This document shows, one piece after another, positions 2,788 through 9,137 of a DNA stretch of 63,323 nucleotides; the stretch's first letter is position 1; each line of letters opens with the position of its first letter. Source of the stretch: a virus (taxonomy: Duplodnaviria; Heunggongvirae; Uroviricota; Caudoviricetes). The translations under genes and the position numbers were made by a program. The stretch covers positions 64,001-127,323 of the IMG/VR virus record IMGVR_UViG_3300003973_000001; one strand, 5' to 3'. The notes beneath the pieces were generated by a model, which saw only the letters and a program-made list of their open reading frames with translations, ran no database searches and was not told the origin of the DNA.

Positions 2788-3270
2788 ATGAAAAAATTTA
2801 TCAAAATGTTATTAGTGGTTATGGTTACAGCTATCAGTGTAGGGATGTTTACAAAAGAAGCGGAGCAAAAAAATATTTCAGTACAAGCGGAGCAAATGAG
2901 CGCTCAAGAAAAAGAATTGCAAGACGTAAAGAAAGAGTTAGCAGACGCAAAGGAAAAAAATTCTCAAGCAGAAAAAATTACTACAATCAATCACTTCATT
3001 ATTGACAAGGTGGACGAAAAATTTGCTTATGCACTTGCAATTGATGATTATGGAACGTTTGAAGAAAATTATGTAGTAATCGAAAAAGAAGATTATTACG
3101 GTGTAGCGTACAAACAAGGCGATATAGTAACAATTTCATTCGATGGGTTTGGAGAGTTAGGAGACCACGAGCGCACGACACAAGGACAACTAGAGATGTT
3201 AAACGATGGATTTGGTGGAATCATAGAGAGTTACAAGAAAGGTTTTGAGGTTGAAAAGCCTCAAGCCTAG
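2788..3270 (+). CDS. Secreted or membrane-anchored hypothetical protein
   Basis: RBS GAGGAG; MKKFIKMLLVVMVTAISVG signal-like N-terminus; coiled coil. Confidence 0.7.
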   Translation: MKKFIKMLLVVMVTAISVGMFTKEAEQKNISVQAEQMSAQEKELQDVKKELADAKEKNSQAEKITTINHFIIDKVDEKFAYALAIDDYGTFEENYVVIEKEDYYGVAYKQGDIVTISFDGFGELGDHERTTQGQLEMLNDGFGGIIESYKKGFEVEKPQA

Positions 3271-3308
3271 TAACAGGCGAGAAAAAAATTTTAAAGGAGA
3301 GAAATAAA

Positions 3309-3722
3309 ATGTTAAATTACTTCAAAAATAGAATGGTCGAAGAGAGTCAAAAGGTTAATTGTTTTTGGAATTTACATCTTAATGTATTCAGTTTAGAAGG
3401 TAGAACGATGGAAAACGGAGCGAAAAAAAATCTTGTGTTAGCTCATGGAAATGACATTATTCTATTAAATGTAAAATTTACGGTTCGCGAGTCAGGGAGA
3501 CAAAAGGTATTAAGAGAGCAAAAAAAGAATGTGCATGCATTTGTAAAAGGGAATTTTATGGGAATTGCAGGATACAATGAGAAATTGATTTTAGGCGCAG
3601 GGATGAGAGAGGCGTATTACAACCCATACAAACAAGATAGTTTCACAGATAAAGAGACAGGAAGGAAATTAGAAGGCGCTGAGATTGTAATTTTAGCTGA
3701 TAAAAGAATCTATTACAAATAA
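3309..3722 (+). CDS. Conserved phage hypothetical protein
   Basis: RBS AAGGAG; VRESGRQKVLREQKKNVHAFV is a familiar phage motif. Confidence 0.7.
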   Translation: MLNYFKNRMVEESQKVNCFWNLHLNVFSLEGRTMENGAKKNLVLAHGNDIILLNVKFTVRESGRQKVLREQKKNVHAFVKGNFMGIAGYNEKLILGAGMREAYYNPYKQDSFTDKETGRKLEGAEIVILADKRIYYK

Positions 3723-3834
3723 GGGTAGGTGTTTTATATGAAATGGATTAAAAGTCTATTTAAAAAGAAATTGACTATAGATGAACAGGTTAACGCGTGG
3801 GAAGAATTCAATAATAAATATGGAGGCGTGGAAA

Positions 3835-3993
3835 ATGAAATTAAATAAATATGTTGGGCTTGTTATAGATAGTATGGTTATTACTGGAGTTGAAAAGTAT
3901 TTTGACTTATCAACAGGCAGAGAAGAGAAATGCTTTATTGTAAATGATAAGTACGGTGTCAATTGCGAATTATTTATAAATCAATACATGTAA
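3835..3993 (+). CDS. Hypothetical protein
   Basis: GGAGG RBS before internal ATG. Confidence 0.55.
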   Translation: MKLNKYVGLVIDSMVITGVEKYFDLSTGREEKCFIVNDKYGVNCELFINQYM

Positions 3994-4024
3994 TCTAAAT
4001 TAACTTATAAAGGAGAAATAAAAT

Positions 4025-4381
4025 ATGAAAATTGTAAAATCTATTTTAAATGCATTAACTAAGAGAGCAGAAAAAGCAGGTGAAAAGAATTTGAAAAAGG
4101 TTTCTGCTACGATTCGTTACGATGTTGTTAAACGTGCTATTGAGCGTGGAGAATTTAAGAGCCTAGAGTGCGCGTACAGCTATACAGATGATTATTTATA
4201 TGATAATGCCACAAACTTCGGGAAACGCCTTGTAAGCGCTGAGGGACTGCTTAGAGAGTTTAGAATTTTAACGCCTTCATGTTGGGTTCGAATCAAAGAG
4301 AAAGACGGAAAAGAATATTATGAAATTAGTATCAGCTTTCATAGTAATTTAGCATATGACATGATAGTCCCTATGAATTAA
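4025..4381 (+). CDS. Hypothetical protein
   Basis: ORF with RBS. Confidence 0.7.
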   Translation: MKIVKSILNALTKRAEKAGEKNLKKVSATIRYDVVKRAIERGEFKSLECAYSYTDDYLYDNATNFGKRLVSAEGLLREFRILTPSCWVRIKEKDGKEYYEISISFHSNLAYDMIVPMN

Positions 4382-4440
4382 GATAGATATATATACATAC
4401 CAAACTAAAAAGAAATTTAACTATAGAGGAGAAATTTAAA

Positions 4441-4704
4441 ATGACTGCAACGGAAATTAAAAAACAAATTAAAAAGGCTATGCATGGAGTTTCTAAAATA
4501 ACTGTAACGATTGGCGAGCATGAAGATGGATATGATTTAAATGTTAATGTGTGGGGCTATGATAGATGGCACAACGAAGAATTCGAATGTTATACAGAAA
4601 CAATGGAAGACGAAAAGAAAGCTATTGCAAAGGCGAAGAGAATGGCAACAACGCTTGTAAATAATGGTTATAAAGCTAAATATACAGGATTCGAAAATTG
4701 CTAA
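4441..4704 (+). CDS. Hypothetical protein
   Basis: ORF with RBS. Confidence 0.7.
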   Translation: MTATEIKKQIKKAMHGVSKITVTIGEHEDGYDLNVNVWGYDRWHNEEFECYTETMEDEKKAIAKAKRMATTLVNNGYKAKYTGFENC

Positions 4705-4729
4705 TTAAAATATGAATGGAGTGATTTAA

Positions 4730-5113
4730 ATGTTAAATATTCAATGTACTGCATGCGATGGTTTTGGGAATCAAAAATTTATTGATGGCAAATTGGTTCA
4801 TGAATGTACAGAATGCACTGGAGGAGCTATACAAGCCCCAGAGGACATGAAAGTATATGTAAGTGTATACAAGGTTACTAGAGAGTTTGGAGGACATGAG
4901 GAAGGTGGGTGGTGGTTTAACTGGTATCAATTACTTGAGACAGTCCCATGTAAAAATAAATTTTCAGATGAAATTAAAAGCGATTTATTGGAAGAATATA
5001 AGAATGTTAAACATGGAAATATTTATTCTGTATTAGGTGGCGCGGATGTAGAAGTGTTTATCGAGCGTAGAGCAGGAGAAAATAAAACAACTGAAAAGCC
5101 TATATATGAATAA
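4730..5113 (+). CDS. Hypothetical protein with N-terminal Zn-ribbon
   Basis: CxxC...CxxC; FGGHEEGGWW motif. Confidence 0.7.
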   Translation: MLNIQCTACDGFGNQKFIDGKLVHECTECTGGAIQAPEDMKVYVSVYKVTREFGGHEEGGWWFNWYQLLETVPCKNKFSDEIKSDLLEEYKNVKHGNIYSVLGGADVEVFIERRAGENKTTEKPIYE

Positions 5114-5125
5114 GGAGAAAATAAG

Positions 5126-5350
5126 ATGAACTTAATAGAGAAACTCAGAAGGTTTAAGGATGACCAAAATGAATTAGAACTTTCTGGTCAAATAACTGCA
5201 AGAAGAAAATCTTGGTTCAAATTTGTCAAATATGAAAACAACGTCCACATACATGCATATGTGGGAGGGAATAAGGTGAAAATATTCGATACATGGGAAG
5301 AAGCGGAAAAGAAATTGAAAATGTGGATTAATATGTTATTTGGTCATTGA
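5126..5350 (+). CDS. Hypothetical protein
   Basis: ORF with RBS. Confidence 0.65.
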   Translation: MNLIEKLRRFKDDQNELELSGQITARRKSWFKFVKYENNVHIHAYVGGNKVKIFDTWEEAEKKLKMWINMLFGH

Positions 5351-5418
5351 GGCGAAACGCGTGGGAAATCACGCGTATATGGTAGAGTGGTAATCTTCAT
5401 ACTGATGAGCCAAACCAT
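5351..5418 (+). ncRNA. Hammerhead ribozyme, type II
   Basis: GGC-GAAA-stem III (ACGCGTG/CACGCGT)-GUA cleavage triplet (5375-5377)-stem I (TATGG.AGA/TCTTCATA)-CTGATGA (5402-5408)-GCC; possible loop I TGGT/ACCA pseudoknot. Confidence 0.9.
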
Positions 5419-5445
5419 AAATGAGAATAGGGGAGTTGTATACAG

Positions 5446-6126
5446 ATGAAAAATAATTTAAAAGAATATAAAAACAACGCTGATTTTATCGCGGAGATAG
5501 TTGAAACAAAAGAATTAAATAATGAAATCAGAATGACTGACGACAAACAATATCTTGTAACGCTCCAGAACACCCACGAGGACGTAAAGGCAGGCAGAGA
5601 TATATTATGTGGTGAAGGCGATGTAGAACGTTGTGTGCAAGCGCTGAAGGGTAGTAAAAACAATTGGGTTAAACATATGCAATGGAAAAAGCTACACAAA
5701 ACCGATTACAAATATTTTTACGCGGAGAAAAAAATTGATGATGTGGATTTAGCCAAGATTCAAAGGGTTAAAGAGAAGTTCTTTAACAACACTGGCAAAA
5801 ATGTTGTATTCATAGTTAGGGATAATGGAAGAGTGATAATAGCATTTCAGAACAAGGTAGTTTATGAAGAATTTTTACTTGTATCGATGCATGGGAAGCC
5901 TCAAGGCGAAAATTGGACTCAATATGGCGCGGAAAAAATTTTCTCGTGGTCGAATAAGATTGATAATTATAACGTGGTAGTTGCTGAATTCTGGACAGAT
6001 GAGAAGCTTGATTATGAGTTGCATGGAGATGCAGATGCGATGTATCGAGCGCACTGGGGAATCCAAGAGCCTACTGACAGACCACGCTCACCGTTTGATG
6101 TATATAGTCCTAGTGAATTGTTATAG
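5446..6126 (+). CDS. Hypothetical protein
   Basis: 226-aa ORF with RBS. Confidence 0.75.
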   Translation: MKNNLKEYKNNADFIAEIVETKELNNEIRMTDDKQYLVTLQNTHEDVKAGRDILCGEGDVERCVQALKGSKNNWVKHMQWKKLHKTDYKYFYAEKKIDDVDLAKIQRVKEKFFNNTGKNVVFIVRDNGRVIIAFQNKVVYEEFLLVSMHGKPQGENWTQYGAEKIFSWSNKIDNYNVVVAEFWTDEKLDYELHGDADAMYRAHWGIQEPTDRPRSPFDVYSPSELL

Positions 6127-6175
6127 GTTAGGTTAATAGGCGAGAAAAATTTTTATAGCATAGGAGAGATTCAAA

Positions 6176-6529
6176 ATGAATGAGAAACAACGTCAACGTT
6201 TAGAAAAGATTGTAACACTATATAAGGACAGCTATAAACGTTTTGATTATGTAACTGGTGAGTATGAAAATATGGAATGGTTAGCATGTTTTGAGCAGGG
6301 TAAAAAATTAATCATGAAAATGATTGGTGAAATGGATAAGCAAAAGATGGTGGCTGTAAATATATTCTATATGCTTGTAGAAAAAGAAAGTTGGATTCCT
6401 CATCCAGACAAGGAAATTAGAGGAAAGGACTTTGGAGAGTTATTTCATAGCGCTTTAAATAAGTTAGGATTGAAATATGATGTTGTAGAATATGGCTCTG
6501 GTGGGAAGAATTACACGTTAAAAGGCTGA
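6176..6529 (+). CDS. Hypothetical protein
   Basis: ORF with RBS. Confidence 0.7.
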   Translation: MNEKQRQRLEKIVTLYKDSYKRFDYVTGEYENMEWLACFEQGKKLIMKMIGEMDKQKMVAVNIFYMLVEKESWIPHPDKEIRGKDFGELFHSALNKLGLKYDVVEYGSGGKNYTLKG

Positions 6530-6611
6530 AAAAATTTTTTGGCACTTGACTGTTACGGTGTGACGGTGTAACATCGTATTATAAATTAATTAATGGACTG
6601 GAGAGATAAAT

Positions 6612-6983
6612 ATGAAACTTAGAAGATGGGTAAAGGTAGCGTTAGTATTAATGGCATTTGGAGCAATTGCAGGAATATTCAAAAGCATGGTATTTGCACA
6701 GACAATGGATGATAAGCCAGAATACAAGGTATATCATGGAGTAATTGAAATGAATTTAAATGGGAAATCAAAGCTTGTAATGTTAGATGGTAAAATAGGC
6801 GAGGATGTCGAAGTAAAGGTAAAAGAAGAATATAATAAAGGACAGATTATTACAGTAGTGTTTGAAGGTAATAGAGTAGTTGAGGATTATATTACAGAGG
6901 GTAAAGAGTTAGATAAGATTCTATATGAGAATCAAGTTTCGATTGAAGAGGTTAAAAGTAACAAAGTATACTTGATGCGATAG
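6612..6983 (+). CDS. Membrane-anchored hypothetical protein
   Basis: N-terminal hydrophobic helix. Confidence 0.7.
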   Translation: MKLRRWVKVALVLMAFGAIAGIFKSMVFAQTMDDKPEYKVYHGVIEMNLNGKSKLVMLDGKIGEDVEVKVKEEYNKGQIITVVFEGNRVVEDYITEGKELDKILYENQVSIEEVKSNKVYLMR

Positions 6984-7081
6984 CTTTTTTATTTGAATCT
7001 AAAGTGTGAAGGTGTCACACGTTAACATAAAAGGCGAAAAAAATTTTTTAACACATAAATAAATAAATGGAGGAATTTAAA

Positions 7082-7300
7082 ATGGAAAAATTATTAGCAT
7101 GGTTAGAACAGGGAGTATCATTAGGAAAGATTACAGGTTATGCATTAGCATTCCAAGAAGTTCGCGAACTAGGATTGAGAAGATATATGGTAGGCGTACA
7201 ACATGCAAGCATGGGAGAAATTGAGCTTAATGTAGCGATTCAAGGAACAACAGTATTAATCAGTCATGAGAATCGTACAATCGAAACTATTACTTGGTAA
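7082..7300 (+). CDS. Hypothetical protein
   Basis: GGAGG RBS. Confidence 0.65.
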   Translation: MEKLLAWLEQGVSLGKITGYALAFQEVRELGLRRYMVGVQHASMGEIELNVAIQGTTVLISHENRTIETITW

Positions 7301-7342
7301 TTAAATAATAAAATACGGGTTTTATTACGAGGAGAAAAAAAT

Positions 7343-7540
7343 ATGTTAGGCAAGATTAGATTTCATAAACCGAGTATTTGCATGACTCTGGAGGTCGAGA
7401 CAGGCAAGCAATTATCTTTCAAGAGTAATTGCATCAAAGAAGCGTCAGAGCGCTGTACGAAGCATTTACAGCGCTTAGGATTAAAGCATGGAGTTTTACG
7501 TGAGACAGTTACAAAAGAAATTTTAAAAACGTTCCATTAA
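7343..7540 (+). CDS. Hypothetical protein
   Basis: ORF with RBS. Confidence 0.6.
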   Translation: MLGKIRFHKPSICMTLEVETGKQLSFKSNCIKEASERCTKHLQRLGLKHGVLRETVTKEILKTFH

Positions 7541-7549
7541 ACAAAAGAT

Positions 7550-7578
7550 TTGCAATGTAATTAATTTAATGATATGAT
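7550..7578 (+). promoter_or_regulatory. sigmaA promoter overlapped by motif A
   Basis: TTGCAA-17-TATGAT with extended TG. Confidence 0.7.
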
Positions 7579-7621
7579 GTATCACAGGCACACAGACCAT
7601 AATAACGGAGGATGATTTTAA

Positions 7622-8176
7622 ATGGCAAAAAATAAACAGCAGTTAGTAGATGAGATTAAGGTTTTAGATGAGTGTATTACAAGCATGTCATTACAATTAG
7701 CTCATGCATCTGATAAGGAGATTAAAAAAGAAACTTATGCAGTTAATGATACAATTAACCACTGGGATAAAATTGTGAAGAAGGCTTGCGGTACTAAGAC
7801 TGGAGTAAATTCAATTAAGAAAGATATTCTAGTAGAAATCCAACAGGACTTTAGAAGAGTTTATATGGAACTTCTGGAGCTTAAAAAGAAAGTTCATACA
7901 TATGTATCACATGGGATTGAATTCATTGAACATCCATATCATATAGGCGTAACTATAGTACATGATAATCCAGACTGGAAAATGTTTCTGGCGAATGCAG
8001 TTGTAAAATTCAAGAAAGACATTGTGTTTATGGTTCGGAAGGGTAATCCAGTGGAAGAAAAAATTATGAATGATAATAATCTATTCATTGAGAAAGAACT
8101 TAGAAACTATCATCAATGCTTTATTGAATACAAGGAATCGGAAATGCTCAAGCATTGGCAGGTTCTCATGGGCTAA
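7622..8176 (+). CDS. Hypothetical protein
   Basis: ORF with RBS. Confidence 0.75.
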   Translation: MAKNKQQLVDEIKVLDECITSMSLQLAHASDKEIKKETYAVNDTINHWDKIVKKACGTKTGVNSIKKDILVEIQQDFRRVYMELLELKKKVHTYVSHGIEFIEHPYHIGVTIVHDNPDWKMFLANAVVKFKKDIVFMVRKGNPVEEKIMNDNNLFIEKELRNYHQCFIEYKESEMLKHWQVLMG

Positions 8177-8271
8177 CTCTATGAGAACTAATTTAATCTT
8201 AATTATAATTAATCTCATTCTATTAGTATTACTGCTGAAGAAAATTCTATTTGCCTAGAAGGGGATTTAAT

Positions 8272-8592
8272 TTGAATATTATAGAACTAACAGAATTTGT
8301 AGTACAACATATTAAGAACTCTAAGTTTAAGCTTCTTAATATTGACGATGTGAGCGGATTACTAAAAGAGAAGCTAGGAGACTCATATGATAGTCAAGTA
8401 GCGTACAGCGTAAAGCAGGCGCTTACAGAGCATGGAGAAATTGATTTCTTCAGAGAAGGTACATATAACAATCATCAAAAGTTTCATTATTGTATAGGTA
8501 CATGGCTCTGCTATAAAGGAGAATATGAAAACCCAGTGCAGGCAAAGATGACTGCAAATATATATGACTATGAAACATTTGGTGATGAATAG
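8272..8592 (+). CDS. Hypothetical protein
   Basis: TTG start after AAGGGGA. Confidence 0.6.
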   Translation: MNIIELTEFVVQHIKNSKFKLLNIDDVSGLLKEKLGDSYDSQVAYSVKQALTEHGEIDFFREGTYNNHQKFHYCIGTWLCYKGEYENPVQAKMTANIYDYETFGDE

Positions 8593-8633
8593 CATTTGAT
8601 TGCGAAAAATAAATTATGAAGGAGCTGTTTTAA

Positions 8634-9137
8634 ATGTTAACAAGAGCAGAGTGGAGCGATATTAAATTTAAGTTGGAAATGGTGGCTATTAAATTCTTGA
8701 AAGAGAATTATGATTTAAAATTAGAAGTCCCAATCGTTCTGAATGGTAGATTAAAAAGTAAGTTTGGTAGATTTATACATGCTCCTCATAATTCGAAAAA
8801 TAGGATTTCTTATAGTATTGAAATATCAAAAAACTACATAGAGTATCAGACTTGGGAGAACGTCATATCAACGCTTAAGCATGAGCTAATACATTATGCC
8901 TTGTATGAGCTAGGAAAGCCATACAGGGACGGAGAAAAAATATTTGAGAGTGAACTGGCTAAGCATGGCTCTCACAGCACTGGGACTCTTGAATTTAAAG
9001 GCGAGATGAATATATATAAATGTAAGGGATGCGGATTAGAATATAGAAGAGTTAGAAAGTACCCTAATAACGCTAAAGGATATACATGTGGAGATTGTGG
9101 AAGTGAAATTTATTACGATGGGAGGAAACTTGTGTAA
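8634..9137 (+). CDS. SprT-like zinc metalloprotease
   Basis: LKHELIHY (HExxH); C-terminal CxxC..CxxC ribbon. Confidence 0.85.
   Translation: MLTRAEWSDIKFKLEMVAIKFLKENYDLKLEVPIVLNGRLKSKFGRFIHAPHNSKNRISYSIEISKNYIEYQTWENVISTLKHELIHYALYELGKPYRDGEKIFESELAKHGSHSTGTLEFKGEMNIYKCKGCGLEYRRVRKYPNNAKGYTCGDCGSEIYYDGRKLV

Follow-up and report, generated by a model that had tools for sequence, protein, structure and literature searches.

Positions 5351–5418 on the plus strand of the window (the whole 63,323-nucleotide stretch of DNA analysed, bases 64001–127323 of a 127,323-bp virus record, 35% G+C) very probably encode a functional type II hammerhead ribozyme of the pseudoknot-stabilised subclass common in phage genomes. 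The identification draws on the sequence and fold of the site, on covariation across the viral family, on orthologues in related Bacillus elements, and on conservation. We infer that the RNA cleaves itself, that it does so within a polycistronic transcript, and that stability or translation differs between the two products.

Structure and gene context of the ribozyme

The 68-nt site had been described in the first-pass annotation as a complete type II hammerhead, and direct reading of the sequence finds every element that was listed (Table 1). The elements follow one another in the order GGC-GAAA-hairpin III-UA-hairpin I-CUGAUGA-GCC, and 19 of the 19 secondary-structure pairs are confirmed by script. 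Loops close stems I and III, and stem II, which is 3 bp long, is open and holds the 5′ and 3′ ends; this is the type II topology. The pairs adjacent to the core are Watson–Crick in all three stems (G5409–C5353, U5378–A5401, and A5357–U5376), in line with the rule of Perreault et al. In keeping with the rule for H17, A5377 is not a G, and U16.1 (U5376) stands directly before it.

Stem III starts with the pair A15.1 (5357)–U16.1 (5376) and continues with CGCGUGG/UCACGCG. The 7-bp stem with a G·U-closed GAAA loop that had been described is present, the loop-closing pair being G5364·U5369, and stem III comprises 8 bp in total when A15.1–U16.1 is counted. Stem I is A/U-rich and carries a bulge. The pseudoknot between loop I UGGU and a 3′ ACCA, previously noted as a possibility, extends to 5 bp (GUGGU 5387–5391 with ACCAU 5414–5418); a loop I–tail pseudoknot of at least 4 bp is typical of type II hammerheads, not obligatory.

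Table 1 Features of the ribozyme site and its neighbours in the window, and locations of the subtype B hammerheads in related elements
Feature	Position	Strand	Basis or remark
Upstream 74-aa ORF	5126–5350	+	ORF list; TGA stop directly abuts the ribozyme
Stem II 5′ strand GGC, positions 11.3–11.1	5351–5353	+	Pairs with 5409–5411; includes the conserved C11.1–G10.1
Core G12 A13 A14	5354–5356	+	Sequence and model alignment
Stem III hairpin	5357–5376	+	GAAA tetraloop 5365–5368; pairs verified by script; paired in orthologues
Predicted scissile bond A17 (5377)/U1.1 (5378)	5377–5378	+	GUA triplet; core alignment
Stem I hairpin	5378–5401	+	5 bp, bulged U5383, 3 bp; loop I GUGGUAA 5387–5393
Core C3–A9, CUGAUGA	5402–5408	+	Sequence and model alignment
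Stem II 3′ strand GCC, positions 10.1–10.3	5409–5411	+	Pairs with 5351–5353
3′ tail ACCAU	5414–5418	+	5-bp pseudoknot with loop I
Ribosome-binding site of downstream gene, GGGGAG-type	about 5431–5437	+	8–9 nt before ATG 5446; read from sequence
Downstream 226-aa ORF	5446–6126	+	ORF list; G001 homologue 88% identical, same place
Subtype B hammerhead, G004	L024:10350–10418, L012:1501–1569		
Subtype B hammerhead, SR52	L132:9042–9111		
Subtype B hammerhead, G003	L013:1501–1572		

The minimum-free-energy structure of RNA 5351–5411 is exactly the hammerhead (−16.9 kcal/mol). When the tail is included, an alternative fold of −22.6 kcal/mol appears, in which UAUGGU 5378–5383 pairs with ACCAUA 5414–5419 in competition with stem I and the pseudoknot. 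This is roughly equal to the hammerhead, for which −18.6 kcal/mol is calculated plus about −3.9 kcal/mol for the pseudoknot. The idea of a conserved riboswitch-like pairing of the tail with 5378–5383 was rejected, as the pairing is not conserved in the orthologue from the related genome G004 (see below).

Two orphan genes flank the ribozyme, which takes up the whole gap between them, beginning 0 nt after a stop codon and ending 27 nt before an ATG. As had been annotated, it starts immediately after the stop at 5350: the TGA of the 74-aa ORF occupies 5348–5350 and the ribozyme begins at 5351. The 74-aa ORF has no PHROG match, and the 226-aa ORF has neither a Pfam nor a PHROG match. In the inspected part of the window, all plausible genes lie on the plus strand. 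A minus-strand ORF at 5397–5699 was set aside as spurious, because it overlaps the 226-aa gene and every other gene is on the plus strand. No promoter or terminator signal above chance is found near the site; stem III was also considered as an intrinsic terminator and rejected, because it has no U-run and is absent from the terminator scan.

The window encodes integrase-fold proteins, an ATP-dependent ligase, DnaE, a RecD2-type helicase, and ribonucleotide reductase. Its relatives are elements of 120–137 kb. One of them, G003, matches a 120-kb scaffold of Bacillus gaemokensis KCTC 13318, and another is the circular 137.6-kb plasmid of Bacillus wiedmannii SR52 (NZ_CP032366.1). Judged by these two relatives, the window's genome is classed as a Bacillus cereus-group phage-plasmid.

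Orthologues and further hammerheads in related Bacillus elements

The closest relative, G001, in which the 127-aa protein is 99% identical, carries the identical 68 nt at the same place. The surrounding identical run (5247–5424) is the longest between the window and G001 within 3000–9000, a region in which the two differ by 15% overall. Because 4.2% of the 68-nt windows in this comparison are likewise free of differences, the identity taken alone is only suggestive.

A more distant orthologue, missed by Rfam, is found with a structural descriptor in G004 (L006:3392–3462, the same as L024:7482–7552), and the SR52 plasmid carries the same orthologue (L132:6423–6499). Compared with the window, the base of stem I, the loop UGGUAA, CUGAUGAGCC, and the AAACCA tail are unchanged. 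Stem III has an entirely different sequence and, at 10–12 bp, is longer than that of the window, but it still pairs. In stem I, an A–U pair is replaced by G·U and a G·U pair by A–U, and the pseudoknot (UUGGU/ACCAA) shows a compensatory change from G·U to U–A. The G004 orthologue has one A·C mismatch, in upper stem I. These comparisons cover the three distinct sequences that make up the true orthologues.

A second type II hammerhead, of subtype B, lies 2.8 kb further on in both G004 and SR52 and occurs once in G003 (Table 1). It is characterised by an extra U between A9 and G10.1 and by a pseudoknot that has co-varied to GUGAU/GUCAC. Its Rfam scores are 40.2 bits in G004 and 33.7 bits. The G003 copy has U·G at 11.1–10.1, and in the SR52 copy one U of the loop has become C, so that the loop now pairs best with the adjacent tail sequence GUCG. 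A comparison of G004 with SR52 shows differences at only 3 of 77 positions in one hammerhead and 1 of 69 in the other, versus 12% and 23% in the respective flanks. In both elements, about 2.8 kb of small genes lies between these two distinct type II hammerheads, which share a strand, and both SR52 hammerheads lie in gaps between annotated CDSs of the plasmid record.

No hammerhead is found in the syntenic region of another close relative, G002, so the element is dispensable. A blastn search of the locus against the phage collection returned no match, and an 81-nt query returned only matches at chance level. Locus searches with single proteins (the 226-aa protein, DnaE, and a 123-aa protein) returned only the two closest relatives.

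The genes on either side of the orthologous hammerheads are not homologous from one relative to the next. In the window, the variable stretch extends from 4730 to 6983, between a conserved gene for a 127-aa Cys-rich protein and a gene for a membrane protein of about 130 aa. In the relatives, the syntenic stretch (L022, L023, and L024) holds differing sets of orphan genes, ranging from 2 to about 9 ORFs, and 0, 1, or 2 hammerheads. Outside this stretch, window positions 4000–4500 differ by 74% from G001 (L021), whereas the two are 85–97% identical elsewhere; replacement of a small gene cassette is the apparent cause. In relatives with direct terminal repeats, the syntenic region lies 5–10 kb from the left end, and Bacillus phages Mater and P59 have homologues of the 127-aa gene inside their terminal repeats. 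On account of these positions, early expression of the ribozyme region is likely.

Model scores, family covariation, and chance expectation

The first-pass annotation had proposed a search with Rfam Hammerhead_II (RF02276), and here the outcome falls short. The match is full-length (model positions 1–66) but scores 27.8 bits, under the gathering cut-off of 37 bits, which is an operational rule and not a structural one. The E-value is 7.7e-4 on 270 nt and 8.7e-5 per genome. At the gathering threshold, RF02276 returns no match in the whole window, and in larger scans with this model (38-kb and 16-kb E-value scans) the speed filters of Infernal drop the site. Standard scans therefore miss the window hammerhead, its score being under the cut-off. 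The low score is due to the A/U-rich, bulged stem I and to the tail spacing; the core is not the cause. We thus class the site as a hammerhead by structural rules, not as a member by Rfam threshold.

An independent covariance model, R1, was built from seven unrelated viral hammerheads and includes no Bacillus-group sequences. With R1 the window site scores 38.2 bits (E = 8.6e-8 over 314 kb, or 5.5e-9 with filters off over 20 kb) and is the sole match in the window. All 16 of the model pairs are standard in the window sequence, including 7 of 7 in stem I. The G004 orthologue scores 30.4 bits. Genus-wide scans of 71 genomes with R1 and RF02276 gave no matches, and the same scans also missed the hammerhead that is present in genome G023, so their negative outcome is given no weight here; of the genus-wide searches, the exact-pattern one described below serves as evidence. 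The claim that this is a complete type II hammerhead is thus borne out by the core and stem rules, by the independent model, by orthologues with compensatory changes, and by conservation.

The window sequence belongs to a wide viral family. A scan of IMG/VR with a pattern that describes the 3′ half only (loop UGGU, CUGAUGAGCC, and ACCA) gives 83 matches. In 36 of them the upstream sequence completes a type II hammerhead, and in each of these GGCGAAAC is present and stem III pairs. In a model-guided alignment of 93 family sequences, 92 of them distinct, pairing is seen in 99% of the cells, compared with about 40% in controls with slid partners, and double-sided changes occur in 14 of the 16 pairs; fitting to the model biases this alignment in favour of the structure. 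The stem II pairs are kept in 92 of 92 sequences. The core columns are nearly without exception (G12 92/92, A13 92/92, and A14 91/92 among distinct sequences), and C3–A9 are invariant across the 92 apart from N7. H17 is C in 88 of the 92, giving GUC, whereas just 2 have A. Pseudoknots of 4 bp or more are present in 87% of the members, compared with 46% when the tails are shuffled. On single viral contigs (loci L071, L085, L049, L063, and L057), about 7 to 17 type II hammerheads lie on the same strand, spaced by a few hundred bases; these arrays are far denser than the Bacillus elements.

A chance origin of the motif is unlikely. The window contains a single instance of the pattern CGAAA..CTGATGAG, where 0.05 would be expected. 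A structural descriptor that specifies the core, a stem II of at least 2 bp, and stems III and I of at least 4 bp each finds exactly one site in the whole 127-kb genome. Among 1500 Markov shuffles of this genome, 89 contain some minimal match to the descriptor, but stems as long as those of the window arise in only 1 of the 1500, even when no pseudoknot is required. A search of both strands of 71 representative genomes from the host genus gives no match to the 18-base pattern of core plus stem II in its form without insertion (subtype A); B. gaemokensis, which is among the 71, has the variant hammerhead with the inserted U.

Proposed function, alternative readings, and significance

According to the proposed mechanism, a tightly packed block of small same-strand genes would be transcribed, and the RNA would fold into the three-stem hammerhead once the 3′ strand of stem II (5409–5411) emerges. 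The ACCAU tail would then dock onto loop I and hold stems I and II parallel, and the RNA would cut itself between A5377 and U5378. The upstream product would end in the stable stem III hairpin and carry a 2′,3′-cyclic phosphate. The downstream product would start 68 nt ahead of the ATG, its 5′-OH nucleotide held in a base pair of the stem I hairpin, and would have the 226-aa gene as its first gene. A GUA triplet is cleavable but often cleaved more slowly. RNase J1 degrades the 5′-OH products of glmS cleavage. Because a 5′-OH end can attract RNase J1 in Bacillus, as with glmS, the downstream message could be destabilised. The direction of any stability effect in Bacillus is therefore uncertain. 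Cutting of a polycistronic mRNA, which would uncouple the stability of the flanking genes, is plausible and in line with what has been proposed for phage hammerheads (PMC3088659, PMC6765202).

Type II hammerheads are well documented in phages, and their function is still open (PMC6765202). Those with a loop I–tail pseudoknot are common in phages and prophages, where the identity of the flanking genes varies (PMC3088659), and they have been proposed to cut long transcripts into shorter, gene-length mRNAs (Perreault et al. 2011, PMC3088659; review PMC6765202). In phage-like contexts, type II hammerheads cleave both in vitro and in vivo (PMC3088659; PMC8782182). The window hammerhead shares with the type II consensus (RF02276; PMC3088659) the catalytic core, the capped stems I and III, and the short open stem II, and with the class as a whole (PMC3088659) a loop I–tail pseudoknot of at least 4 bp and a location in an intergenic gap of a phage. 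It differs from the consensus in its score (27.8 versus 37 bits), in its A/U-rich and bulged stem I where the consensus is G/C-rich, in GUA in place of the usual GUC, and in a 2-nt AA linker before the ACCA tail. Its host group, a Bacillus cereus-group phage-plasmid, also differs from those of known type II hammerheads.

Among the closest known counterparts are the hammerheads of the Agrobacterium tumefaciens ardA locus and of the Clostridium scindens and Azorhizobium caulinodans prophages, which likewise lie on the same strand between varying small phage genes (PMC3088659). There several copies flank genes, as in the pairs of G004 and SR52, whereas the window's genome has a single copy. Cleavage of the prophage examples has been demonstrated in vitro and in E. 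coli (PMC3088659), whereas the window hammerhead is known from its sequence. The three type II hammerheads of Desulfovibrio vulgaris, which are active in vivo by cyPhyRNA-seq (PMC8782182), are similarly located near hypothetical or phage-like genes, but they belong to another host phylum and pass standard prediction. HHphage of haloviruses HF1 and HF2 (PMC3088659) resembles the window hammerhead in its placement just upstream of a start codon; it lies in an early polycistronic transcript, and a mapped 5′ end falls within 3 nt of its cleavage site (PMC3088659). However, HHphage comes from an archaeal virus, has a variant core, and needs high salt, whereas the core of the window hammerhead is canonical. 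The glmS ribozyme of Bacillus (PMC6765202) is also a self-cleaving RNA within a Bacillus mRNA whose 5′-OH downstream product determines the fate of the message, but it has another fold, depends on a metabolite, and is located in a 5′ UTR. Since its cleavage destabilises the message, downstream stabilisation by the window hammerhead should not be assumed.

The position of the ribozyme against the stop codon recurs. In the Bacillus elements, the ribozymes start 0–4 nt past a stop codon or overlap it, and the gap on the 3′ side is 26–29 nt. Among 89 distinct viral type II hammerheads, 54% start between −2 and +5 nt from the point where an ORF of 60 aa or more on the same strand ends, whereas 2.3% of random positions drawn from these loci do so. 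The next ORF start is considerably further away, at a median of about 90 nt by a crude estimate. In the hammerhead papers and reviews searched, we found no mention of stop codons. It could mean that the hammerhead is real and its cleavage conditional: termination on the upstream gene would leave a ribosome sitting over stem II, the GAAA core, and the 5′ half of stem III, and cutting would occur mainly when the upstream gene is untranslated or before the first ribosome. Besides the two placement statistics, the existence of an alternative fold that uses the tail fits this reading, and regulated cutting of phage hammerheads has been raised by Perreault et al. (PMC3088659). We nevertheless consider it unlikely, for the abutment may simply reflect the tight packing of phage genes, the 3′ side in the Bacillus elements is nearly as tight as the ribosome-binding site allows, and the alternative tail pairing is lost in the orthologue. 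That phage type II hammerheads are placed against the upstream stop on purpose, as a translation-gated cut that reports translation of the upstream gene, is likewise improbable; if true, an RNA cut would set the ratio of neighbouring gene products.

It is also conceivable, with a quite low probability, that the site is a chance or decayed hammerhead-like sequence that does not cleave and is passively carried along with the neighbouring genes. The score under the Rfam cut-off, the minority GUA site, the absence of the element from G002, and the share of equally difference-free 68-nt windows in the comparison with G001 all fit such a sequence. Against it, the core is perfect and all helices are intact, an equal motif arises in a single shuffled genome, and the core pattern is absent from the 71 genus genomes. 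Moreover, pairing in the orthologue has been kept through a complete change of the stem III sequence, and the hammerheads of G004 and SR52 are far better conserved than their flanks. The exchange of genes around the ribozyme brings up a further reading, in which its main role would be that of a boundary element of exchangeable gene cassettes and control of mRNA stability would be secondary. The element would then serve as a conserved recombination sequence, or paired hammerheads would release an RNA segment that could be ligated into a circle. The non-homologous genes around orthologous hammerheads, the variable content between the 127-aa gene and the membrane-protein gene, and the hammerhead pairs that flank 2.8 kb in G004 and SR52 point in this direction. 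However, the window's genome has one hammerhead, so no segment could be excised here; a search by Perreault et al. for spliced or circular products was negative (PMC3088659); and 68 nt is short for homologous recombination. We regard a boundary role as very improbable. The preferred reading remains a functional type II hammerhead that would cut the message between the 74-aa and 226-aa genes.

The window hammerhead is a further example of a kind that has been described since 2011, with its function inferred, and it leaves the general picture of hammerheads unchanged. It exposes a blind spot of annotation: a ribozyme that looks bona fide is missed by standard Rfam searches, as is its G004 orthologue. 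The relatives with 0, 1, or 2 hammerheads in the same variable region form a natural comparison set. Two of the hosts, B. gaemokensis KCTC 13318 and B. wiedmannii SR52, are cultivable and tractable, making cleavage, its dependence on RNase J1, and effects on neighbouring genes testable. If the abutment to the stop codon is not mere gene packing, it would bear on how these ribozymes are used.
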